Source: a virus
Strand: one strand, 5' to 3'
Length of the DNA: 64,000 nucleotides
IMG/VR virus record: IMGVR_UViG_3300011113_000747
Location: 32,001 to 96,000 of that record
A program made the translations under genes and the position numbers. Numbering within the stretch: position 1 is the first letter of the stretch; every line of letters starts with the position of its first letter. The notes beneath the pieces were generated by a model. It worked only from the letters and a program-made list of their open reading frames with translations. It was not told where the DNA came from and ran no database searches. Below, in pieces: positions 2,551 through 24,981 of this stretch.

Positions 2551-4185
2551 TCAGACAAATCGGTCGATAAAATATTTAGGTAAGATATCAGTATTATTTT
2601 TCAATACATTGAGCACTGTAGCATCTAAGATATATGTCACGCAATGATCGTCTTTTGATCTAATTCCACGACCACAAGCTTGAATAAGAGAGCATAACAT
2701 TTTATTTTCATACCACTTTTTATCTGCATCAAATAGAATTTTAATTCTCTGATCTGTGAGTGGTAGGTAAGGAGCTTTTACAATGATTTGAAATCTTGCA
2801 AGATCATCTTTTAAGTCAACACCATGAGTAAGTGAAGGTGATACAAGTACTGTCGGCTCATCGGTTTCATAATGAAGTTTGAGAATTTCATCATTCATTA
2901 CACCTTGCTCACGATACAAAAATCGTTTTTCACCACATTTCGGTTTGATTGCATTCGTGATAGCTAACGTATGGGTGTGAATGATACCTTTATCATTTTT
3001 ATGCATTTCACAAATACTCTGCACCATATCAACAATAATAGGTAGAGTTGACTTCATCGAATACGCATTCAATCTATGCTTTGCATTTACATAAATTGGA
3101 GCCTTTTTACTATCAAAAGGTGATGCAATATCGATAAACTTAAACTTCTCAATACCTAAAGTTTTTGCAAAGTTCTTTTCATCAATAATGGTTGCAGACA
3201 TCAAAACAATCTTTTTACCGTAATCAAAAAGATATTTTGTAAGCCTATCAATTTTGAGAGGTGTAAATGTGATGGTATTGCCATTTTTCTTTTCAATGAG
3301 ATACTCACAATCATTCCACGATTCAATAAGCAATTGCAGTTTGCTGTTAAGGTTTTTCAACCCAATCATCTTCTTTTTCTCGTTTTCGAGATAATTAGTT
3401 AACTTGTCATTACCTTTGATAGTCAATTCAATTGCCTTGACTTTCTCTTGAATTGACAATGCAAGAGCTTCTACACCACGATATGCCTTTGCATAATCAC
3501 CAGTTGGAATACTGCTAGAGTAAAAATTAATATCACACTCATCTAGAAAGTCAGTATCGATATTACATGTAAACTCTTTTACAAATTCATCCTCAAGTTC
3601 CGATGCCTCATCACAAATAATGTATTCGCGATGTTTAACATGATCAGGCAATGAGAAAAACATCTTGTAGTTCAAAGTTGCAAATGGACCAACAATTGCT
3701 TCGTTTCTATCTCTATAATAGGTACAGAAGTTTTTTCTCCAACATTCATCTCTTAGTTTCTTAATATGAACACATGGAGCTGTTTCAACAGAATAATTTT
3801 TATCTACTTCACAAAGGTAGTTATTTTTACCTTTTAGTACTTTCACATCATCAAAGAACTGCTTATACTGATCTTGAAGACCCTTTGTTACAGTTAATGC
3901 AAAACAGCCAAATGGTTGCTTCTCAGTTTCATTAACACAATCATATTCATATTCTCCATCTTGCTTATATGCAAGATATGATGTAATAAGATCTCTAAAT
4001 TCTTTAGAGCATTGATTTGAAGCATTAGCTACAGTTTTAGAGATAAAAGATTTACCAGTACCAGTAGGTGCTCTTACTATTACAAATTTATGACCTTCTA
4101 AAAAGGCTTGCTCAATATTATTGAGTACAATTTGTTGAGACTCGTTAGGCTTATATCCAGATGGAAAACAATTAATTAATTTCAC
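2551..4185 (-). CDS. DinG/Rad3-like SF2 helicase
   Basis: APTGTGKS, CDEASELE, LMSATI, QACGRGIRSKDDHC; Cys residues consistent with an Fe-S cluster. Confidence 0.85.
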   Translation of the reverse strand: MKLINCFPSGYKPNESQQIVLNNIEQAFLEGHKFVIVRAPTGTGKSFISKTVANASNQCSKEFRDLITSYLAYKQDGEYEYDCVNETEKQPFGCFALTVTKGLQDQYKQFFDDVKVLKGKNNYLCEVDKNYSVETAPCVHIKKLRDECWRKNFCTYYRDRNEAIVGPFATLNYKMFFSLPDHVKHREYIICDEASELEDEFVKEFTCNIDTDFLDECDINFYSSSIPTGDYAKAYRGVEALALSIQEKVKAIELTIKGNDKLTNYLENEKKKMIGLKNLNSKLQLLIESWNDCEYLIEKKNGNTITFTPLKIDRLTKYLFDYGKKIVLMSATIIDEKNFAKTLGIEKFKFIDIASPFDSKKAPIYVNAKHRLNAYSMKSTLPIIVDMVQSICEMHKNDKGIIHTHTLAITNAIKPKCGEKRFLYREQGVMNDEILKLHYETDEPTVLVSPSLTHGVDLKDDLARFQIIVKAPYLPLTDQRIKILFDADKKWYENKMLCSLIQACGRGIRSKDDHCVTYILDATVLNVLKNNTDILPKYFIDRFV

Positions 4186-4207
4186 ATCTTTATTATAGCT
4201 TATACCT

Positions 4208-4549
4208 TCATTCAGTCAACATATATAAAAAGTTATCATACATTTTATTAGATGTCTTTTTATCTGTTGTTTTGAGTTTATAATAAAGCTCTGAACTATT
4301 ACTATTACAAAAACTACTCAAAGTATATTCAAATACTAGAGAGTTATTTGTTTCGTGAATTTTGTAAGGATAAGGCACTTCAAAAACTTTAATTTCATTA
4401 TCAATATCAAGATTAAACTTAATAAAGAATTGCTTAATTGTAAAAATTTTTAACTTGCCTTTTTTGATTACCTTATTATTAAGTTTGAAAGTAACAGGCT
4501 TAAGTAAGAAGTTGTTTATTTTTTTCTCTATTGAATCTTTGTTTCTCAT
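4208..4549 (-). CDS. Hypothetical protein
   Basis: 113 aa ORF tightly packed in the minus-strand operon. Confidence 0.6.
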   Translation of the reverse strand: MRNKDSIEKKINNFLLKPVTFKLNNKVIKKGKLKIFTIKQFFIKFNLDIDNEIKVFEVPYPYKIHETNNSLVFEYTLSSFCNSNSSELYYKLKTTDKKTSNKMYDNFLYMLTE

Positions 4550-17374: not shown

Positions 17375-17911
17375 ATGAATATTTTTGTAACCGATGAAGA
17401 TCCTGTTGTATCAGCAATTAATCTTTGTGATCAACATGCAAGATCTAAAATGATTATCGAGTCCTGCATTATGCTACAAAACGCATTTTCGCAGGACTCG
17501 CTTTCTCATGAATCATGCCCTCGAACTAAAACAGGTCGAGTACGCAGACGAGGTAAAGGGTATGCAAAACATCAGTGCACTCTTTGGACGATTGAATCGC
17601 AATCTAATTTCGAATGGTTGCTTGAACATGCTCTTGCAATGGTTGATGAACGAAACTTCAGATGGCCTAATAGTCCAGAACATTTTAGTGTATCGTTTTT
17701 AAAATGGTGTAAGGAAAATCGGTATAATACGATTATTGAAAGAAAAGGTTTAACACCATTTACTGTTGCGATAAGTCAAGATAGTGAATGCCGTCAGATC
17801 AAAGCTTTCAATAAGCTCTCTGTTATTGATCAATATAGACAATATATTGTCCATGACAAAGACTTCGCAACCTGGACAAAAAGAAAAAAGCCTTTTTGGT
17901 ATGGAAAATAA
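17375..17911 (+). CDS. Pyrimidine-dimer DNA glycosylase (DenV) family-like protein
   Basis: MNIFV.DEDP..SA..LCDQH..KM..ESCIML, HQCTLW, YRQY, W.KR.KP.W. Confidence 0.65.
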   Translation: MNIFVTDEDPVVSAINLCDQHARSKMIIESCIMLQNAFSQDSLSHESCPRTKTGRVRRRGKGYAKHQCTLWTIESQSNFEWLLEHALAMVDERNFRWPNSPEHFSVSFLKWCKENRYNTIIERKGLTPFTVAISQDSECRQIKAFNKLSVIDQYRQYIVHDKDFATWTKRKKPFWYGK

Positions 17912-18062
17912 GCTCAGCTAATATAAATAAAATTAGATGAACCATAATGTCACATACCTCAATACAGGCGCCTTTAGTAAAGGTTGCGAGGGGTATGATT
18001 GGTCTAATCCGATGCCGCAACGAATTTCGAAAAGATAATTTAAGAAAAGAAGTTGAAGTAAA

Positions 18063-18078
18063 GGAAAAAGACTATAAT
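18063..18078 (+). promoter_or_regulatory. GGAAA-N5-TATAAT promoter at the head of the tRNA array
   Basis: ggaaa aagac tataat. Confidence 0.6.
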
Positions 18079-18266
18079 ATAAAGACATAACACAAAAGGT
18101 TCACGACGAGGGATGACCAAAACAGCCCAAGAGCTCGCAGAATGCGACGTAAAGCGAAAAGCTGACAGTGATATAAAGTATTGAAATAAAATAAAGCATA
18201 TGGGTTAGTAATGCAAATTGCATGAGGCTCCCCCGGTGTAGCCACCACAAGCCATGAATTTCAAAA

Positions 18267-18341
18267 GGCTGCTTAGCTGAGATAGATTAGCGTCTGCCTG
18301 AAGAGCAGAATAGACTGGAGCGTTACCAGTAGCAGCCACCA
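18267..18341 (+). tRNA. tRNA-Phe(GAA)
   Basis: GGCTGCT/AGCAGCC acceptor; TCTGC-CTGAAGA-GCAGA; T-loop AGCGTTA; encoded CCA. Confidence 0.85.
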
Positions 18342-18409
18342 TTTTTAGTTGGAGAACTGATCCTTCAGACTTTCGGTGATCTGAAGCAAAGAAAACACCG
18401 TACAATTTC

Positions 18410-18498
18410 GGGACCTGCCCCCATCAATGGACTGTAAATCCATTGCCATTAATAAGATGGGAAGTTGGCAAGTGGTGCGTTACCACCAGGGCCCACCA
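18410..18498 (+). tRNA. tRNA-Tyr(GTA)-like, lacking a D-arm
   Basis: GGGACCT/AGGGCCC; ATGGA-CTGTAAA-TCCAT; T-arm GTGG-TGCGTTA-CCAC; ACCA. Confidence 0.65.
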
Positions 18499-18504
18499 TT
18501 TCAA

Positions 18505-18591
18505 GTTGGAGACATCGCGCTGTGTTGTCTTTAAAACGCTAACCAACAAGAACAAACCAGTCGTGTCTGCTGGTATAGAAAAAGACACACA
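18505..18591 (+). ncRNA. Candidate pseudoknotted RNA element
   Basis: GTTGG/CCAAC stem; its loop TGTGTTGTCTTT is complementary to downstream AAAGACACACA; intervening ACCAG/CTGGT hairpin. Confidence 0.4.
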
Positions 18592-18592
18592 T

Positions 18593-18685
18593 GGAGAGAG
18601 TCCGGCTAGACGAGGAGCAATCTTGGAAAGATTGTAGACGCAGCTCTGCTGGGTCTGGTGGGTGCGAGTCCCCCTCTCTCCTCCA
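18593..18685 (+). tRNA. tRNA-Ser(GGA)
   Basis: GGAGAGA/TCTCTCC; CAATC-TTGGAAA-GATTG; long variable arm; T-loop TGCGAGT. Confidence 0.85.
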
Positions 18686-18691
18686 TTTTCT

Positions 18692-18781
18692 GGGTAGTTA
18701 ACTAGACAAGCGCGCTAGGACCGACTTGAAATCGGATCGAGGTGTAAAAGCCTTGGGGTGCAAGCCCTCAGCTGCCCGCCA
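18692..18781 (+). tRNA. tRNA-Ser(TGA)
   Basis: GGGTAGT/GCTGCCC; CCGA-CTTGAAA-TCGG; variable arm; GCCA. Confidence 0.85.
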
Positions 18782-18787
18782 TTTTTT

Positions 18788-18862
18788 GCGGATATAATTC
18801 AGTGGTAGAATATCTCGTTGCCAACGAGAGTGTCGTCGGTTCAAATCCGACTATCCGCTCCA
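18788..18862 (+). tRNA. tRNA-Gly(GCC)
   Basis: Canonical cloverleaf; CTCGT-TGCCA-ACGAG; TCCA. Confidence 0.92.
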
Positions 18863-18871
18863 TTTTCAAAA

Positions 18872-18946
18872 GCGGTGTAGATGTTAATGGCTGCACACCT
18901 GACTTCCAATCAGAAGGAGGGGGTTCGATTCCCCCACACCGCACCA
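18872..18946 (+). tRNA. tRNA-Gly(TCC)
   Basis: GCGGTGT/ACACCGC; CTGA-CTTCCAA-TCAG; GGTTCGA. Confidence 0.9.
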
Positions 18947-18953
18947 ATTTTAA

Positions 18954-19030
18954 CGGGATGTAGCTCAGCCTGGTAGAGCGCTTGCTTTGGGAGCAAGATG
19001 TCGTCGGTTCGAATCCGGCTATCCCGACCA
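18954..19030 (+). tRNA. tRNA-Pro(TGG)
   Basis: Canonical; CTTGC-TTTGGGA-GCAAG. Confidence 0.92.
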
Positions 19031-19035
19031 TTTAT

Positions 19036-19128
19036 GGAGAGTTAACTGGACAAGCGCGCCAGGGATGTTTGCTAAACATCACGCACTTCCCTCAGAGGTG
19101 TGCGGGGCAGGACCGCAGCTCTCCTCCA
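19036..19128 (+). tRNA. tRNA-Ser(GCT)
   Basis: GATGT-TTGCTAA-ACATC; variable arm; T-loop GGCAGGA. Confidence 0.85.
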
Positions 19129-19136
19129 TTTTTATT

Positions 19137-19213
19137 CGGGTGGTGTCTGGACAAGTAAACGAGCTCGGTTTGGATCCGAGTATATGTGGGAGCGTTACCC
19201 ACTCACCCGACCA
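19137..19213 (+). tRNA. tRNA-Pro(TGG), second divergent copy
   Basis: CGGGTGG/TCACCCG; CTCGG-TTTGGAT-CCGAG; T-loop AGCGTTA. Confidence 0.8.
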
Positions 19214-19223
19214 ATTTCAAAAA

Positions 19224-19312
19224 TCCCCCTTAGCTCAGTGGTAGAGCGCTTGGCTGTTAACCAGGAGGCCCTTATAAGGTATAGCGACGATCGTAACGTC
19301 GAGGGGGAGCCA
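19224..19312 (+). tRNA. tRNA-Asn(GTT) with long variable arm
   Basis: TCCCCCT/AGGGGGA; CTTGG-CTGTTAA-CCAGG; variable hairpin CCTTATAAGG; T-arm CGACG-ATCGTAA-CGTCG. Confidence 0.8.
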
Positions 19313-19321
19313 ATTTCAAAA

Positions 19322-19407
19322 GCAGGTGTGGGTCAATTGGTTGACCAACAGACTTTTAATCTGTGCGAGTAATCGCTATGTGGGTTCGAGTCCCATCGCC
19401 TGCACCA
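19322..19407 (+). tRNA. tRNA-Lys(TTT) with long variable arm
   Basis: ACAGA-CTTTTAA-TCTGT; variable arm GCGA-GTAA-TCGC; canonical T-arm. Confidence 0.85.
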
Positions 19408-19416
19408 ATTTCAAAT

Positions 19417-19493
19417 ATCCGGCCATGTTCCAAGGCTAGGCGACGCGGACTCCAAATTTGCGTGGGTCAGTTCAATTCTGACGCCGGATGCCA
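19417..19493 (+). tRNA. tRNA-Trp(CCA)
   Basis: ATCCGGC/GCCGGAT; GCGGA-CTCCAAA-TTTGC. Confidence 0.8.
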
Positions 19494-19501
19494 TTTCAAA
19501 T

Positions 19502-19577
19502 GCCCCATTAGTATAACGGACAGAACACTCGGCTACGAACCGAGAGAAGGTAGGTTCAATTCCTCCATGGGGTACCA
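19502..19577 (+). tRNA. tRNA-Arg(ACG)
   Basis: GCCCCAT/ATGGGGT; CTCGG-CTACGAA-CCGAG. Confidence 0.9.
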
Positions 19578-19580
19578 TTT

Positions 19581-19655
19581 CGCGCAATGGTGTAAGGTAA
19601 AGCACGCTGGCCACACTGGCGCCAGAGGAAGGGTGAAAAGCCTGATGCGCAACCA
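19581..19655 (+). pseudogene. Degenerate tRNA-like unit, anticodon not readable
   Basis: GCGCA/TGCGC acceptor, D-arm-like TGGTGTAAGGTAAAGCAC, CTGGC/GCCAG arm with a 9-nt loop, 3' ACCA. Confidence 0.5.
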
Positions 19656-19663
19656 TTTCAAAT

Positions 19664-19742
19664 GCTCCAGAAGCTACAGTAGACGGGCAGCTGGCTCTTA
19701 ACCAGAAGATTCGTGTGGTTGCAACTACCACCTGGAGTACCA
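19664..19742 (+). tRNA. tRNA-Lys(CTT)
   Basis: GCTCCAG/CTGGAGT; CTGG-CTCTTAA-CCAG; T-loop TGCAACT. Confidence 0.85.
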
Positions 19743-19752
19743 ATTTCAAAAA

Positions 19753-19829
19753 GCCCCGGTAGCATAACTGGTAACTGCAGCAGTCTCAAACACTGAAGAG
19801 TGTCGGTTCGAATCCGACTCGGGGTACCA
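19753..19829 (+). tRNA. tRNA-Leu(CAA) with short variable loop
   Basis: CAGT-CTCAAAC-ACTG; 5-nt variable loop; canonical T-arm; A73. Confidence 0.8.
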
Positions 19830-19834
19830 ATTAA

Positions 19835-19921
19835 GGAAGCACCAGCTGAGATGGACGCTCTGCGGAGAAGTGTTACTTGTGCAAGAAAGCTAAACGAACG
19901 CTTTCCAGCTGACTTCCACCA
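19835..19921 (+). ncRNA. CCA-ended tRNA-like small RNA
   Basis: GGAAG/CTTCC plus CAGCTG/CAGCTG closing stems, internal hairpins, 3' ACCA followed by the array spacer ATTTCA. Confidence 0.5.
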
Positions 19922-19928
19922 ATTTCAT

Positions 19929-20027
19929 GGGAGTGTGAAGCCAAAGGCTAGGCTAGTGGTTCGATTCCACTTTAATTGCTGGTGCACTCGACGGAGCAAG
20001 AGGGTTCGAATCCCTTCACTTCCACCA
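19929..20027 (+). tRNA. tRNA-Ser(CGA) with extra-long variable arm (99 nt)
   Basis: GGGAGTG/CACTTCC; AGTGG-TTCGATT-CCACT; TTGCT/AGCAA variable arm; A73. Confidence 0.75.
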
Positions 20028-20036
20028 ATTTCAAAT

Positions 20037-20120
20037 GGGCTTGTGGATAACCAGAAACAGCAGAATGGCTCGGCTTAAACCCGATGATCCTTGAGGGTGC
20101 AACTCCCTTCAAGCCTACCA
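20037..20120 (+). tRNA. tRNA-Leu(TAA), enlarged D region, short variable loop
   Basis: GGGCTTG/CAAGCCT; TCGG-CTTAAAC-CCGA; T-loop TGCAACT. Confidence 0.75.
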
Positions 20121-20128
20121 ATTTCAAT

Positions 20129-20205
20129 GCCCTGGTAGCATAACTGGCAACTGCGTCTGACTTAGGATCAGAAGAATGGGGGTTCGAATCCCTCTCAGGG
20201 TACCA
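20129..20205 (+). tRNA. tRNA-Leu(TAG) with short variable loop
   Basis: TCTGA-CTTAGGA-TCAGA (G37); D-arm nearly identical to Leu(CAA). Confidence 0.85.
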
Positions 20206-20213
20206 ATTTCAAA

Positions 20214-20288
20214 GGCCTATAAGCATAGATAGCGATGTATCCGTTTTGTAGTCGGAATAGGAGTGCGCAAGTCACTCATGGGCCTCCA
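20214..20288 (+). tRNA. tRNA-Thr(TGT)
   Basis: GGCCTAT/ATGGGCC; TCCG..TTTGTAG..CGGA; T-loop CGCAAGT. Confidence 0.8.
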
Positions 20289-20294
20289 TTTTAT

Positions 20295-20369
20295 TACCCT
20301 CTAGTGTAATGGTTAACACACCTGACTTTGACTCAGGTAGTCCTCGTTCGAATCGAGGGAGGGTAGCCA
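20295..20369 (+). tRNA. tRNA-Gln(TTG)
   Basis: TACCCTC/GAGGGTA; CCTGA-CTTTGAC-TCAGG. Confidence 0.9.
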
Positions 20370-20379
20370 ATTTTCAAAT

Positions 20380-20442
20380 GGGGTGTCCTGTGCCGCCTAG
20401 CAGGGTAATGGAAAATCTTGGGCTAACCTCCACATTCCACCA
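20380..20442 (+). ncRNA. 63-nt CCA-ended mini tRNA-like RNA
   Basis: GGGGTGT/ACATTCC acceptor-like stem plus ACCA; only two internal hairpins. Confidence 0.45.
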
Positions 20443-20451
20443 ATTTCAAAT

Positions 20452-20529
20452 AACCCTATCGTATAGTCTGGTTGAGTATGTCTGTCTCTGAAACAGAAGG
20501 CCCTGGTTCAAATCCAGGTAGGGTTGCCA
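20452..20529 (+). tRNA. tRNA-Gln(CTG)
   Basis: AACCCTA/TAGGGTT; TCTGT-CTCTGAA-ACAGA. Confidence 0.88.
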
Positions 20530-20551
20530 ATTTCAAACAACAAACACAAAC

Positions 20552-20833
20552 ATGTGGCCAAGCATTAATAATTTTAAAATCTTATCACCAAAAGAAAAAT
20601 GTATAGCTGCATTTCATTATTGGGTTGAAACACAAACAGATGGTAGTGTTTCTTGGAGACATGCAAATACATGTACAACTTCTCTAACACAAAAGCAGCA
20701 GATGCATTATAGAAAATATTATGAAGTGCTTCATGCAATTAGGTTTGTTATTCATACTGAACGCTATGATTTGCTAATTTCTGAGCATCAAGCATTGAAT
20801 GCTCTCAATGATGGCAACAATGTTTTAGTTTAG
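20552..20833 (+). CDS. Hypothetical protein inserted in the tRNA array
   Basis: 93 aa AT-rich ORF filling the gap between tRNAs. Confidence 0.55.
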   Translation: MWPSINNFKILSPKEKCIAAFHYWVETQTDGSVSWRHANTCTTSLTQKQQMHYRKYYEVLHAIRFVIHTERYDLLISEHQALNALNDGNNVLV

Positions 20834-20839
20834 TAAAAA

Positions 20840-20914
20840 TGCTCTCGGGAGGTAAGGATCTCGGACCGTCTCATAAGCGGTGTTAAGTGGGTGCAATCCC
20901 CACGGGAGCGACCA
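20840..20914 (+). tRNA. tRNA-Met(CAT), elongator Met or Ile2 not distinguishable
   Basis: TGCTCTC/GGGAGCG; ACCGT-CTCATAA-GCGGT; T-loop TGCAATC. Confidence 0.8.
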
Positions 20915-20920
20915 ATTTAA

Positions 20921-20936
20921 GGAAATACGATATAAT
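20921..20936 (+). promoter_or_regulatory. GGAAA-N5-TATAAT promoter (internal to array)
   Basis: ggaaa tacga tataat. Confidence 0.6.
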
Positions 20937-20957
20937 AATAGAGTAATAAATTTAAAA

Positions 20958-21035
20958 GTCCCTGTAGTTAACGGAAGGCTATAACATCGCCCTTTCACGG
21001 CGAAATACCCGGTTCGACCCCGGGTGGGGATGCCA
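20958..21035 (+). tRNA. tRNA-Glu(TTC)
   Basis: TCGCC-CTTTCAC-GGCGA; GGTTCGA. Confidence 0.88.
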
Positions 21036-21044
21036 ATTTCAAAT

Positions 21045-21118
21045 GACCCTGTAGATTAATAGTAAATCGCCACGCTTTCAACGTGAAGACGACGGAGCAT
21101 AACCGTCCTGGGTTGCCA
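21045..21118 (+). tRNA. tRNA-Glu(TTC), second divergent copy
   Basis: CACG-CTTTCAA-CGTG; T-loop AGCATAA. Confidence 0.8.
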
Positions 21119-21127
21119 ATTTCAAAT

Positions 21128-21205
21128 AGAGCCGAAGTCAAACAGCATTGACGCTCGCCTGTCGAGCGAGATATAAAGTGGGGGCAGCACCCATCGGCTC
21201 TGCCA
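21128..21205 (+). tRNA. tRNA-Asp(GTC)
   Basis: AGAGCCG/CGGCTCT; CTCGC-CTGTCGA-GCGAG; T-loop GGCAGCA. Confidence 0.82.
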
Positions 21206-21213
21206 ATTTCAAT

Positions 21214-21289
21214 CCTTCTGTAGCTGAGTGGTTTTTAGCAGCGTCTTGATAAGGCGCAGACGTAGGTTCAATTCCTACCAGAAGGACCA
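21214..21289 (+). tRNA. tRNA-Ile(GAT)
   Basis: CCTTCTG/CAGAAGG; GCGTC-TTGATAA-GGCGC. Confidence 0.9.
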
Positions 21290-21297
21290 ATTTCAAA

Positions 21298-21373
21298 AGC
21301 CCTATAGCCCAACAGCAGAGGCAATACGTTAAGGGCGTATTCAGTGCAGGTGCAAATCCTGCTAGGGGTACCA
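21298..21373 (+). tRNA. tRNA-Leu(AAG) with short variable loop
   Basis: ATACG-TTAAGGG-CGTAT (A34, G37); T-loop TGCAAAT; one acceptor-stem mismatch. Confidence 0.72.
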
Positions 21374-21378
21374 ATTTT

Positions 21379-21561
21379 ATGAAAATAATTGTCAACACAG
21401 AACAAGAAAAGATTGCTTTATTAAAAGCTTCAAAATACATTCATGATCTAAAATGTTTAGATACAAGCGATGATGCTGTTAATACAATAGCTCATTTGTA
21501 TTGTGCACCATTTTTAATTGAAGTTGATCCTAATTTAAAAATTTCAGTTGAACAACAATAG
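21379..21561 (+). CDS. Hypothetical protein inserted in the tRNA array
   Basis: 60 aa AT-rich ORF between tRNAs. Confidence 0.5.
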   Translation: MKIIVNTEQEKIALLKASKYIHDLKCLDTSDDAVNTIAHLYCAPFLIEVDPNLKISVEQQ

Positions 21562-21576
21562 GAAAGAGTATATAAT
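21561..21576 (+). promoter_or_regulatory. GGAAA-N5-TATAAT promoter
   Basis: TTGAAC-17 nt-TATAAT with GGAAA in the spacer. Confidence 0.65.
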
Positions 21577-21593
21577 ATTGTTGTAGATAAAAA

Positions 21594-21669
21594 TCCCAAG
21601 TAGCTCAGCGGTAGTAGCGAGTGGCTGTTAACCACTAGGTCGCTGGTTCGATCCCAGCCTTGGGAGCCA
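21594..21669 (+). tRNA. tRNA-Asn(GTT), canonical copy
   Basis: TCCCAAG/CTTGGGA; AGTGG-CTGTTAA-CCACT. Confidence 0.92.
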
Positions 21670-21679
21670 TTTTCAAAAT

Positions 21680-21753
21680 TGCAGGTAGGTGGTCTAGTGA
21701 CCATTCTGGGCTCATAACCCGGAGAGCGTGGTGCGATTCCCGGCCTGTTACCA
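21680..21753 (+). tRNA. Initiator tRNA-fMet(CAT)
   Basis: GGG/CCC anticodon stem around CTCATAA; 1:72 mismatch; T-loop TGCGATT. Confidence 0.8.
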
Positions 21754-21761
21754 ATTTCAAT

Positions 21762-21837
21762 GCCCGGTTAGCTCAGCGGTAGTAGCACCGCCTTTACACG
21801 GCGACTGTCGCAGGTTCAATCCCTGCACCGGGTACCA
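21762..21837 (+). tRNA. tRNA-Val(TAC)
   Basis: CGCC-TTTACAC-GGCG; canonical. Confidence 0.9.
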
Positions 21838-21843
21838 GTTTAT

Positions 21844-21919
21844 GGGGCCATAGCACAATTGGTAGTGCACCTGCTTTGCAAGCAGAAGGTTACCGGTTCG
21901 ACTCCGGTTGGCTCCACCA
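21844..21919 (+). tRNA. tRNA-Ala(TGC)
   Basis: GGGGCCA/TGGCTCC with G3:U70; CTGC-TTTGCAA-GCAG. Confidence 0.92.
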
Positions 21920-21929
21920 ATTTCTAAAT

Positions 21930-22025
21930 GATCGGCGTCTGAAAAGGTAAGAGAAACCTCTCCCACTGCAAACGTTAGCAGATGAAGTTTTGAGCTTTCA
22001 TAACGACGAGTATACCTGGTCACCA
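21930..22025 (+). ncRNA. CCA-ended multibranch small RNA
   Basis: GATCGG/CTGGTC plus ACCA; CGTC/GACG inner stem enclosing three hairpins. Confidence 0.5.
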
Positions 22026-22030
22026 ATTTC

Positions 22031-22170
22031 AGAACATTCAATCAACCGCAACACAGAGGTCGATCTTGCAAGCCGAGTACCTCTGACGGCTCTGATAACA
22101 GGTGCGCTTGCACGAGCCTTGCGAATGGTTCTGCATGCACCAGCTGAATTAGCTACTCAGTGTGGTGCTA
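22031..22170 (+). ncRNA. Candidate structured RNA
   Basis: AGAACATTC/GAATGGTTCT, CGCAA/TTGCG, CAGAGG/CCTCTG, GGCTC/GAGCC, then a GCACCA/TGGTGC hairpin. Confidence 0.45.
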
Positions 22171-22201
22171 AATTTTTTAATTAACTATAATAAATATTAA
22201 C

Positions 22202-22660
22202 ATGAAAAAAGATTTAAAACTCATTGCAGAAGCTTATAACAAGGTTATTATTGAACAAATAACTGATGATTGGTTTCAACAAGGAGCATTTCAAGCTTAT
22301 AAAAAGCCAGCAAAAGAACCATATCAAGTTGCAAAGCAAGATGGTGTGTTACAGACCTTAGAAGGACCACAACAATACAAAGCTGGTTTTTATATTATTA
22401 CAGGACCGAAAGGTGAAAAATATTCGATGCCTCCAGAAAAATTCAATGAATTAAAAGATGATAACGGGGATGGTACAGCTTCACCTAAAAAAATTATTAA
22501 GCAAGTAAAATTAGCTGATTCAGATGGTGTTGTAAAAACTTCATGGGGAGCTGATTTACAATATAAGTCTGGGGAAGATTATATTGTTAAACATGGTCCG
22601 GGTGATTATGGTGTGGTAAAGAAAGATATTTTTCAGCAAACATACGTATCCGAACAATAA
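22202..22660 (+). CDS. PGDYG-motif protein (duplicated domain)
   Basis: HGPGDYGVVKKDIFQQTY; two similar halves; TAAATA at 22191. Confidence 0.75.
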   Translation: MKKDLKLIAEAYNKVIIEQITDDWFQQGAFQAYKKPAKEPYQVAKQDGVLQTLEGPQQYKAGFYIITGPKGEKYSMPPEKFNELKDDNGDGTASPKKIIKQVKLADSDGVVKTSWGADLQYKSGEDYIVKHGPGDYGVVKKDIFQQTYVSEQ

Positions 22661-22670
22661 ATTTTTCAAT

Positions 22671-22745
22671 GCGCAATGAGCCAGCTGGCGTAGGCAGCGG
22701 TCTGCAAAATCGCTTAGTAGGGTTCGATTCCCTAATTGCGCTCCA
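22671..22745 (+). tRNA. tRNA-Cys(GCA)
   Basis: GCGCAAT/ATTGCGC; GCGGT-CTGCAAA-ATCGC; U73. Confidence 0.9.
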
Positions 22746-22770
22746 ATTCTAGTACGCGTATCCGGCGCTA

Positions 22771-22836
22771 GGCTCGTCGCTGGTTAATTCTAGACATCTG
22801 AGATTCCAAATTTCAGATGAAGTTAACGGGCCGCCA
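22771..22836 (+). ncRNA. Long hairpin ending in GCCA
   Basis: GGCTCG/CGGGCC, GTTAA/TTAAC and CATCTGA/TCAGATG stacked stems. Confidence 0.4.
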
Positions 22837-22858
22837 ATTTTTTTAGTTGAATTAGATA

Positions 22859-22874
22859 GGAAATATCTTATAAT
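22859..22874 (+). promoter_or_regulatory. GGAAA-N5-TATAAT promoter
   Basis: TTGAAT-16 nt-TATAAT with GGAAA in the spacer. Confidence 0.65.
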
Positions 22875-22897
22875 AAAGGTGTAAACAAACAACAAAA

Positions 22898-22980
22898 GCC
22901 CCGGTAGCGGATCCGCCTTCTAAGCGGAGCATTGTACCGTAATTGGACGCATACAGGTTCGAGTCCTGTTCGGGGTACCA
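22898..22980 (+). tRNA. tRNA-Arg(TCT)-like, lacking a D-arm
   Basis: GCCCCGG/TCGGGGT; 7-nt linker; TCCGC-CTTCTAA-GCGGA; CGT-AATTGG-ACG hairpin; ACAGG-TTCGAGT-CCTGT; ACCA. Confidence 0.7.
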
Positions 22981-22990
22981 TTTTTCAAAA

Positions 22991-23067
22991 TCCCTGCGTA
23001 TCATAATTAGTTAATGTCCTCGCCTGTGAAGCGAGCTAAGACGGGGCAGAACCGTCCCAGGGAACCA
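22991..23067 (+). tRNA. tRNA-His(GTG) without G-1/C73
   Basis: CTCGC-CTGTGAA-GCGAG; T-loop GGCAGAA; discriminator A. Confidence 0.78.
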
Positions 23068-23074
23068 TTTCATC

Positions 23075-23362
23075 ATGACAACCACACGCAAAGATAAAAT
23101 TTTAGTTTTCCAACACAAAATAACTAATTTATATTTAGCAGTATGGCGTGAGCCGGGATCAACTTCTTATTTTTGGACATATGATGTTAATGATGCTATG
23201 CAGTCAAATGTATGGGATGAAAATCATGCAATTTTTCAGAACATTGAAAAGGCAGACCCTGCAAAATATTTTGACCCCATGAGAAGCAATGAAATTAAAG
23301 ATTGCAAACTTGTAATGTTTGAAAAAGAGTCTACAATCAATTACAAACAAATTTCATCATGA
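23075..23362 (+). CDS. Hypothetical protein
   Basis: 95 aa ORF; ATGA overlap with the next ORF. Confidence 0.6.
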   Translation: MTTTRKDKILVFQHKITNLYLAVWREPGSTSYFWTYDVNDAMQSNVWDENHAIFQNIEKADPAKYFDPMRSNEIKDCKLVMFEKESTINYKQISS

Positions 23363-23706
23363 CAACATCAACAATCATCAATGAAGATTATGCAATGGAG
23401 CTTACGATGTTGCATCGTTACAGAGACCTTTCAGATGGTCTTTCGGTAATAGAATTTGATTGCAACTTTGATTGGTATCATGGTGATCATTGTCCAAAGT
23501 TTGATTTGAGTCTGAGATTATTCAATTGGACTATTTTTGAGTTTAACATCTACAACAGACATCATGTTGTAGATGAAATAGGCGATGTTTTATTGCCTTG
23601 GGCAAAACAAGATTTTGAAGAATCAGACAAAGCTTTTATAGAGCTTGTAAAAAATTCCGGAATAGTTGCAAACGAGGGTTCGAAACCTCCAGTAGCATCT
23701 AACTGA
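23359..23706 (+). CDS. Hypothetical protein
   Basis: 115 aa ORF, translationally coupled to the previous one. Confidence 0.6.
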   Translation: MTTSTIINEDYAMELTMLHRYRDLSDGLSVIEFDCNFDWYHGDHCPKFDLSLRLFNWTIFEFNIYNRHHVVDEIGDVLLPWAKQDFEESDKAFIELVKNSGIVANEGSKPPVASN

Positions 23707-23940
23707 GATTCAAAGCATCGAAGTTTATAGGTTTGAACGACGGGTTGTTGGCCCGGTAGGTGTGTTCGAGTGCACACGTGCTTTGAGTCTCGACAATTCA
23801 TCTGGCTGTTGCAATGAGGTAAAGACCCAACGCAATGCCAAATAGTCCAAAAAGTAAGAGTAAAATATTCATAAGGGCTGCATTTCAAAACTATGGCAAA
23901 GCTTTTGCTATAGCGATGAAAATTGCAGCAATGCAAAAAA
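23705..23940 (+). ncRNA. Candidate structured RNA with a tRNA-like cloverleaf closed by a 13-bp stem
   Basis: GAGATTCAAAGCA/TGCTTTGAGTCTC encloses three hairpins including GTGTG-TTCGAGTG-CACAC; further long hairpins follow. Confidence 0.55.
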
Positions 23941-23996
23941 ATCCAAGAAACATGTGGATTATCTCAAGGAAGTTCATATAGTTATTTATTCAAAAT

Positions 23997-24084
23997 GCTG
24001 GTGTGGCTGAGCGGCCTAAAGCACTAGTTTTGTAAACTAGCGGGAGTGATCCCATCGTCAGTTCGAATCTGACCACCAGCTCCA
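23997..24084 (+). tRNA. tRNA-Thr(TGT) with long variable arm and class II-type D-arm
   Basis: GCTGGTG/CACCAGC; GGCTGAGCGGCCTAAAGC; CTAGT-TTTGTAA-ACTAG; GGGA-GTGA-TCCC. Confidence 0.88.
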
Positions 24085-24090
24085 TCTTCC

Positions 24091-24270
24091 ATGAACAATC
24101 GCAGATCATTCTTCAAAAGACTCATTGGCTTAATCGCTGCACCAAAGGTTGCGAAAGCAACACACTCAAGCAACATAGTCAAAATGTGGACACCTGAAAC
24201 AGGTGTTACATATGGTGAGTATATTCATCCAGGCATTTGTATTAAACAAATTGACAAAACGGGGAGTTAG
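24091..24270 (+). CDS. 59 aa protein with a twin-arginine-like N-terminus
   Basis: Manual translation MNNRRSFFKRLIGLIAAPKVAKA...; stop overlaps the tRNA-Val 5' end. Confidence 0.5.
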   Translation: MNNRRSFFKRLIGLIAAPKVAKATHSSNIVKMWTPETGVTYGEYIHPGICIKQIDKTGS

Positions 24271-24334
24271 TATAGAAGCAGTACATTGGCTCGACACGCC
24301 AAAGAAGAAGGAGCGTTACCTTCACTCCCTACCA
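24261..24334 (+). tRNA. tRNA-Val(GAC)
   Basis: GGGGAGT/ACTCCCT; TTGGC-TCGACAC-GCCAA (C33); T-loop AGCGTTA. Confidence 0.8.
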
Positions 24335-24345
24335 TAAATATATTC

Positions 24346-24828
24346 ATGAAGTTTGATGATGTTGTAAACGAAGCACTTTCACGTCTTTCGCCTGTAAAAC
24401 TATATAGAGGAGCTGAACCAGATGAGGATCCTTCGAGTGAAGTAGAAAGACCTTGGGCCCAAGGTCGTGAATTAGATTTTCGTGCTGCATTTATGAAAGG
24501 AGATGTTGATGAAGTTATCAGCATGCTGCGTAAGCATGCTGGTGATTCTGGTGTAAGAGCAAAAGGTATAAAGTCATATTCTTTGAATAGAGATGTAGCA
24601 AAAGAGTTTATTTTCGACAAAGGTATAATTAAAGAATTAGATATACCCGCTAAAAACATAATTTCATCAAGACAAAGACTACAAACAATTTTATCTTTAC
24701 CTGATCAACAAAAACAGCAACTGCTCGATCAGGGTGTAGGATTCAACGTTAATAGATTGCTTTCCAAATATAAATTTGCTGCATCTGATCCAGATACAGA
24801 GCAAGAAATAATGATTTACAAAAAGTAA
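24346..24828 (+). CDS. Putative ADP-ribosyltransferase (R-S-E type)
   Basis: LYRG, SYSLNRDVAKEF, EQEIMI. Start moved to ATG 24346 because the track start lies inside the tRNA; TAAATA at 24335. Confidence 0.6.
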   Translation: MKFDDVVNEALSRLSPVKLYRGAEPDEDPSSEVERPWAQGRELDFRAAFMKGDVDEVISMLRKHAGDSGVRAKGIKSYSLNRDVAKEFIFDKGIIKELDIPAKNIISSRQRLQTILSLPDQQKQQLLDQGVGFNVNRLLSKYKFAASDPDTEQEIMIYKK

Positions 24829-24906
24829 GCCAACTATCGCTCCACCCGACAGATAGCTTTGCATGACGGTGCAAATGACCCTGAAAATCGCAAGGAGCAA
24901 AATCAT

Positions 24907-24981
24907 GGTTTCTAAGCATAGACAGCGATGCACACGATTGGTATTCGTGATAGAGGAGCGCAAATCTCCTAGGAGCCTCCA
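24907..24981 (+). tRNA. tRNA-Thr(GGT)
   Basis: GGTTTCT/AGGAGCC; CACGA-TTGGTAT-TCGTG; T-loop CGCAAAT. Confidence 0.82.

Follow-up and report, generated by a model that had tools for sequence, protein, structure and literature searches.

The window analysed here, a stretch of 64,000 nucleotides, covers bases 32001-96000 of a T4-like phage genome of 184,542 bp that has direct terminal repeats and is rated complete. The genome encodes a T4-like DNA polymerase, an SbcC-like protein, PhoH, QueD, and GTP cyclohydrolase. Approximately 18.2-27.3 kb of the window is occupied by a tRNA array plus a tmRNA, and three more tRNA genes (Leu, Met, and Trp) lie outside the window, at positions 171887-171979, 172794-172868, and 183499-183576 of the genome (C1). 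A stem scan of the whole genome left one credible tRNA-Tyr gene, located in this array (Table 1). This agrees with a sequence-only reading of the same DNA, which had named it the sole tRNA-Tyr and whose quoted strings were all found in the complete genome's one Tyr-like gene. ARAGORN made no Tyr call in the whole genome, also at a lowered threshold, and Rfam gave no match at E ≤ 10 at the locus. No class Ic synthetase was found in the complete genome, and the phage is thus without its own TyrRS. Neither a sigma-70 promoter nor a terminator was found within 17850-18700. The gene ends in ACCA and is followed by the T-rich spacer typical of the array.

Several further elements were observed around the gene. 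The 68 nt between Phe and Tyr (18342-18409) contain the hairpin CTTCAGA...TCTGAAG; because Phe directly adjoins Tyr in the related loci L001 and L093, this segment is an insertion or a lost unit. The spacer 3' of Tyr (18499-18592) begins with TTTCAAGTTGGAGA, kept in L001 and L093, and AGTTGGAGA is shared, as it occurs in this spacer and again 3' of Phe. The spacer is possibly another small RNA unit. Three Ser tRNAs (18593-18685, 18692-18781, and 19036-19128) were missed by ARAGORN and can adopt an 8/4 as well as a 7/5 fold, which makes them similar to the phage (8/4) tRNA-Ser described in PMC5389517.

Table 1. Features of the rewired tRNA-Tyr gene and the companion tRNA-Arg gene (window coordinates)
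Feature	Position	Strand	Remarks
Rewired tRNA-Tyr(GUA) gene	18410-18498	+	89 nt, CCA encoded; without ARAGORN or Rfam call
Acceptor stem (8 bp), 5' strand, from G1	18410-18417	+	Eighth pair in 105/106 homologues, with both-side changes
Acceptor A.G mismatch	18413/18491	+	One in the window gene
Connector	18418-18419	+	2 nt, CC; mostly CC or UU in the family
P1 strand a	18420-18425	+	CCCATC; equivalent of the D-stem 3' strand, two nt after the acceptor strand; covariation
Anticodon arm	18426-18444	+	26.44 layer A18426/U18444; stem 18427-18431/18439-18443
Anticodon loop	18432-18438	+	Part of the anticodon arm; anticodon GTA at 18434-18436
P2 5' strand	18445-18448	+	GCCA; variable-arm-like stem; first three pairs in 64/64, both-side changes
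Linker, P2 back to P1	18449-18455	+	A/U-rich; mostly 4-9 nt in the family
P1 strand c	18456-18461	+	GATGGG; relocated D-stem 5' strand, pairs with 18420-18425
Relocated D-loop strand	18462-18465	+	AAGU; A18 = 18463, G19 = 18464; 18/55 covariation
P2 3' strand	18466-18469	+	TGGC, pairs with GCCA; holds the GG that had been read as G18-G19
T arm	18472-18486	+	4-bp stem 18472-18475/18483-18486; loop 18476-18482, G55 = 18477, C56 = 18478
Acceptor 3' strand	18487-18498	+	Discriminator A73 = 18495; CCA
Rewired tRNA-Arg(UCU)	22898-22980	+	Same strand swap; 7/5, 7-nt connector, 3-bp helix, no P2

The gene has a number of canonical features, namely a 5-bp anticodon stem, a 7-nt loop with U33 and a purine at position 37, and an NCCA end. 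The bacterial tRNA-Tyr identity set (A73, G1-C72, and the GUA anticodon) is present in the window sequence, and A73 and G1-C72 are known bacterial Tyr identity elements (PMC9976931). The arrangement between the acceptor strands is unusual. The string GCCCCCATCA (18417-18426) contains the first strand of a helix, P1, whose second strand is directly followed by AAGTTGGCAA (18462-18471). A second conserved stem, P2, occupies the variable position, where the family has a stem of 3-5 bp (4 bp in the window gene) with its loop tied into P1.

The window gene alone folds no better than its shuffles (z = -0.59). The sequence by itself thus proves nothing, and relatives were sought. Two pattern scans and a metagenome scan yielded, among the matches listed, at least 106 distinct sequences in at least 164 loci, so that the family comprises more than 100 distinct phage and bacterial sequences; 11 further rewired copies, dropped by a 7/5 filter, were found in addition to the 106. 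The pattern scans prescribed ACCA and the anticodon and T loops, together with a long gap, and nothing else. The patterns thereby also set C56 and the two T-loop classes, and conservation of these features, as of the anticodon loop and ACCA, therefore carries no evidential weight; base 18 and G1-C72 lay outside the search patterns. Among the matches listed, G1-C72 occurs in 104/106 homologues, and ARAGORN calls one of the 106. The distance from base 7 to the anticodon stem is invariant at exactly 10 nt (106/106 among the matches listed). The first G of the segment of about 10 nt named earlier had been missed as an acceptor base: it pairs with base 65, so that the acceptor has 8 bp and the T stem 4 bp.

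Both new helices are supported by covariation. P1 is fully paired (6/6) in 101 of the 106 listed homologues, compared to 11% for mismatched 5' and 3' halves, and its strands form 52 different combinations among the matches listed. When the register was set only by the GAAG motif, which is blind to pairing, P1 was paired in 64/65; on an unguided MAFFT alignment, 96% of the P1 cells were paired, with both-side changes at five of the six pairs. P2 has at least 3 bp in 106/106 listed homologues, versus 34% for mismatched halves. To lessen the effects of kinship, a minimum spanning tree was built on other columns and changes were counted along its branches. This gave 148 double compensatory, 29 G-U-compatible single, 5 other double, and 0 single pair-breaking changes for P1, and 102 double changes without a break for P2, whereas a control with partners slid by one base gave 155-209 breaks. 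The proposed pairing of CCCATC with GATGGG 3' of the anticodon arm is borne out by these data, and the label D-armless is not supported in that form, as a 6-bp D helix exists that is built from swapped strands.

The acceptor branch was assigned in the same way. In a MAFFT alignment of 64 members, pair 49:65 was unpaired in 54. This pair forms in 11/106 homologues, whereas 8:65 forms in 105 of the 106 listed, as G-C, U-G, U-A, or C-G. Because base 8 pairs with 65 in place of 49:65, the branch is 8/4 and not 7/5. With this correction, 96% of the alignment cells pair, a value that 0/500 shuffles reach; the slid controls lie at 37-54%. In the family, G.U, A.C, or A-U predominate at position 26.44. 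Covariation thus shows all five helices and the 8/4 branch of the predicted structure, and the rewired fold of this tRNA-Tyr can be regarded as close to certain.

P1 and P2 cross each other and together make a pseudoknot. Nearest-neighbour folding, which is unable to form pseudoknots, gave mean pair probabilities of 0.53 for P1 and 0.04 for P2. The core of the window gene has an energy of -13.8 kcal/mol without either stem, -20.8 with P1, and -19.1 with P2; each stem stabilises the core, and coexistence of the two is outside the reach of these energies. A functional tRNA whose P1 and P2 form in alternation, as in a switch or a folding intermediate, would agree with the gain from either stem alone and with the short strand from P1 to P2, which has only 3-6 nt and also has to reach the T loop. 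This arrangement is nevertheless improbable: with no nucleotide in common, the stems are not in competition, every member listed retains both, and positions 20-21 and 47-48 are close together in ordinary tRNA. P1 and P2 would therefore be expected to form simultaneously.

Relative to a class II tRNA, the proposed fold corresponds to one in which the D-stem 5' strand and the D loop have been excised and reinserted at the tip of the variable arm. From the acceptor (8 bp), the chain would run through the 2-nt connector, D-helix strand a, the anticodon arm, the first V-stem strand, and the linker, and then through D-helix strand c, the D-loop strand, the second V-stem strand, and the T arm (4 bp) back to the acceptor. 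The three new strand links connect positions that lie close to one another in ordinary tRNA. P1 would stack on the anticodon stem to give 12 layers (6+1+5), as the 6-bp D stem does in tRNA-Sec, and this arrangement would explain why U8 and A14 are not kept. In this manner, a pseudoknotted, non-cloverleaf secondary structure would rebuild the normal L shape. The gene contains the cloverleaf segments in a different order, and the processing of permuted tRNA genes is known (PMC3978253), so that cutting and re-ligation of a precursor to yield a cloverleaf, as for permuted, split, or intron-containing tRNA genes, can also be considered. It is very improbable, because the 5' acceptor strand comes first and ACCA last, which is not the order of a circular permutation, an internal transposition would require three cuts and ligations, and the covarying P2 and the A/U linker are sensible only in the encoded order.

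The elbow provides a further line of evidence. The conserved element consists of the three bases directly after P1. It was predicted that these bases, if they are positions 16, 18, and 19, should vary in step with the T loop, and a search was made for members whose T loop is ordinary. Homologues with G55 read AAG after P1 in 65/65 listed, and those with U55 read NGG (G18-G19) in 36/41 listed, with the GG one base later in the other 5. Ordinary cloverleaf tRNAs of the same loci (n=1,638) obey the same rule across 23 anticodons: G55 is found with D-loop AG in 93/98 and U55 with GG in 1,529/1,533. Within 18267-24981 of the window, the ordinary Phe, Glu, two Thr, and Leu-AAG tRNAs have G55 and D-loop AG, and the rewired Arg(ACG) of L093, which has G55, also reads AG. 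Since the relocated strand follows the rule of ordinary tRNAs, this is good evidence for the L shape. These joint changes strongly indicate docking of the D-loop strand on the T loop through G19-C56, with A18.G55 here and G18.U55 in other members. Tyr genes with G55 may form a single clade, in which case the 18/55 switch within the Tyr family could be one event. A BLAST search of the window gene against cultured phages returned anticodon-arm matches only and thus identified no cultured phage with the G55 subtype.

The sequence-only reading had proposed a 3'-shifted D-loop string before the T arm. A relocated D-loop segment is indeed present, but the GG of AAGTTGG belongs to P2 and is not G18-G19. 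The D-loop-like appearance of TTGG is coincidental, as homologues read GCC, GAG, AGG, or GAC at this place. A scan anchored on AAGTTGG was discarded; it returned mostly chance matches because its GG is not conserved.

Relatives at the locus were found via a neighbouring protein. The closest phages, L001 and L002 (94% identity), have the same layout, with CCCATC/GATGGG replaced by CCTATC/GATAGG; their anticodon stem shows a compensatory change as well. Phages at 83-85% (L004, L005, and L007) carry ordinary genes for both tRNAs, a class II Tyr and an Arg(UCU), with the Phe-Tyr-Ser slot as in the window; the canonical Tyr sits in the Phe-Tyr-Ser position in L004 and L007. These canonical genes are unrelated to the rewired gene and are not alignable ancestors carrying an extra arm. 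The presence of canonical and rewired Tyr in one slot points to whole-gene exchange, not decay. A pseudogene formed by recent deletion of the D-arm would fit the normal Tyr at the locus in these three phages, the one A.G acceptor mismatch, and the lack of a score from ARAGORN and Rfam. This explanation is refuted by the hundreds of compensatory changes seen across more than 106 diverged homologues; the mismatch is common to 7/64 aligned sequences, and the closest relatives (L001, L002, L093, and L147) keep the layout with compensatory changes. The original suggestion that the gene is probably functional is sustained by the compensatory changes among diverged homologues and by the filling of the Tyr slot.

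In arrays that have at least 12 tRNAs and a rewired Tyr, ARAGORN finds a Tyr in 7/86, and other amino acids are represented in 54-76. The control, i.e., arrays without the rewired gene, was contaminated by the 11 copies dropped by the filter; the other 10 control arrays have an ARAGORN Tyr in 7 and an uncalled canonical Tyr in an eighth (L421), which are too few for a rate. The scarcity of canonical Tyr in carrier arrays and the slot shared by relatives indicate that the rewired gene fills the Tyr slot. In bacterial genomes, the rewired gene is found either within arrays or on its own, and 9/10 of these genomes also have a canonical Tyr; as a canonical Tyr is nearly always present, the rewired gene is accessory there. 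Solitary 95-nt rewired Tyr genes were observed among housekeeping-type genes in six alphaproteobacterial MAGs (L539, L545, L546, L560, L564, and L568), which are labelled Amphiplicatus, Parvularculaceae, and Hyphomonas and have a canonical Tyr too in 5/6.

Such extra copies, some of them solitary among housekeeping genes, would suit a structured tRNA mimic acting off the ribosome, either as a decoy that engages sensors of uncharged tRNA or nucleases cleaving tRNA-Tyr, or as a Tyr donor for a non-ribosomal enzyme. A decoy would likewise conserve fold and anticodon, and irregular tRNAs that are charged yet unused in translation exist (PMC5389517). A mimic is nonetheless unlikely, because the rewired gene replaces the canonical Tyr in arrays and is swapped slot for slot between relatives. 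In addition, the 12-bp acceptor branch, whose length is read by EF-Tu (PMC5389517), is kept together with the 12 anticodon-D layers and the elbow, and no Tyr-using enzyme was seen among 10 flanking proteins.

The rewired Tyr gene is also present in cultured phages, namely Pseudomonas phages Lyrsu03 and Rembedalsseter and Rhizobium phage RHph_N3_2. It is unannotated in all of them, and no canonical-type Tyr match was found in these three genomes. A third subtype was identified in crAss001 at approximately 4141-4235 (L611:1451-1545), between Lys and Phe: this unannotated rewired Tyr has a 7/5 branch, U8, a 4-bp helix, and P2 (V-stem pseudoknot). The 'tRNA-Pseudo-2' of KVP40 (L571:4478-4563) was first taken for a member and then rejected, as it is an intact canonical tRNA-Tyr. 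A separate gene on the minus strand, L523:10995-11087, adjoins a rewired Tyr and has a GUA anticodon on an apparent Ser(UGA) body of its phage group; an anticodon switch or a missense tRNA is possible.

The rewired tRNA-Arg(UCU) of the window had been considered to have the same architecture. The strand swap is indeed shared, but the subtype is different: Tyr is 8/4 with a 6-bp helix and a V-stem pseudoknot and without U8/A14, and Arg is 7/5 with a 3-bp helix, U8/A14/A15/U48, and no clear P2. An independent origin of the two forms is plausible from these differences. Arg(UCU) and its 14 homologues carry UCU, ACG, CCG, and GAU anticodons; in this group, the 3-bp helix shows compensatory changes and U8, A9, A14, and A15 are found, with mostly G18-G19 and U48. 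The 7-nt-connector form with ACG, CCG, or GAU was observed in L093:6946-7025, L516, L527, L354, L531, L505, and L421:10605-10684, and cultured carriers of the Arg form are phi92, Bas94, Francob, and Trina. A CGT/ACG mini-hairpin proposed for Arg(UCU) was rejected, as it is not kept in the homologues.

With regard to function, the tRNA-Tyr would be released from the array transcript in the same way as the neighbouring tRNAs, charged by the host TyrRS (A73, G1-C72, and GUA being present), and used to decode UAU/UAC during infection. Bacterial TyrRS contacts the long variable arm, and P2, with only 3-5 bp, may not replace it. (8/4) tRNAs of bacteria and phages are used in E. coli translation (Mukai et al., PMC5389517), and an engineered D-armless tRNA works there as well (PMC11551756), which makes the host machinery a credible partner. 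A working L-shaped tRNA-Tyr charged by the host TyrRS is thus quite probable on the comparative evidence, and its use in translation is likely.

Why the rewired form is kept is the least certain part. Our best guess, which has somewhat less than an even chance of being right, is that the phage thereby gains a Tyr tRNA escaping recognition by tRNA-cleaving defences or structure-reading enzymes of the host. A phage tRNA-Tyr rescues T5-like phages from a retron that depletes tRNA-Tyr (PMC11555353), which suggests a possible motive for rewiring. Neutral drift between equivalent folds is an alternative to defence evasion. In general terms, we tentatively propose a second, non-cloverleaf tRNA topology in natural bacterial-type translation, which may have arisen more than once (8/4 Tyr; crAss001 7/5 Tyr; 7/5 Arg/Ile), be common in phages and invisible to gene finders, and have been selected because D/V rewiring conceals it from host defences that target tRNAs without loss of acceptance by synthetase, EF-Tu, and ribosome.

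If true, a natural and widespread pseudoknotted tRNA would mean that the translation machinery reads the three-dimensional L shape and not the connectivity. Phage tRNA inventories would be corrected where Tyr and Arg are given as missing or as 'tRNA-OTHER', and the rewired tRNA would be a new scaffold for tRNA engineering. All known bacterial tRNAs have been described as cloverleaves (PMC11551756). No description of the rewired design was found in the full-text literature searched; reviews and papers on odd tRNAs mentioned neither pseudoknots nor a D-strand swap, and an Anabaena trn-operon paper contained nothing about D-arm loss.

Several known systems share individual features with the rewired gene. 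Canonical class II tRNA-Tyr(GUA) (RF00005; for example, L004:11069-11156, KVP40, and phi92) has the same GUA anticodon, 7-nt loop, 5-bp anticodon stem, G1-C72, A73, CCA, 12-bp acceptor branch, G19/C56, stem in the variable position, and array slot. In contrast, the rewired gene has no D hairpin, its D-helix strands flank the anticodon arm in a pseudoknot, and it is 8/4 instead of 7/5, without U8-A14 and with a short V stem. The (8/4) allo-tRNAs and (8/4) tRNA-Ser/tRNA-His of Mukai et al. (PMC5389517) also have an 8/4 branch, a long D helix with about 4 loop nt, and a place in phage clusters. They differ in their cloverleaf fold, which includes a D hairpin and a long V arm, and in mostly carrying G73/U73 for Ser or Ala identity, whereas the rewired Tyr has A73, a 4-bp V stem, and a 6-bp helix plus a loop strand of about 4 nt that is not a hairpin; the main text of that paper contains no Tyr member and no pseudoknot among its (8/4) tRNAs.

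tRNA-Sec (PMC7609411) likewise has a 6-bp D stem and a 4-nt D loop that replace the 8-14 and 15-48 layers, and U55 rewired members resemble it in reading UGGU/CGGU at the D-loop strand. It differs in its cloverleaf topology, 13-bp branch, UCA anticodon, and SelB delivery. D-armless mitochondrial tRNA-Ser, the tRNA-like domain of tmRNA, and the engineered mini-HisT (PMC11551756) share the lack of a D hairpin in the acceptor-anticodon interval, but they have lost the D helix, whereas the rewired Tyr rebuilds it from relocated strands and, by covariation, keeps the elbow. Circularly permuted and split tRNA genes also show an unusual segment order in the gene, but they are processed back to a cloverleaf (PMC3978253 and PMC3218864), whereas the rewired tRNA-Tyr has normal ends and its mature fold itself appears to be rewired.
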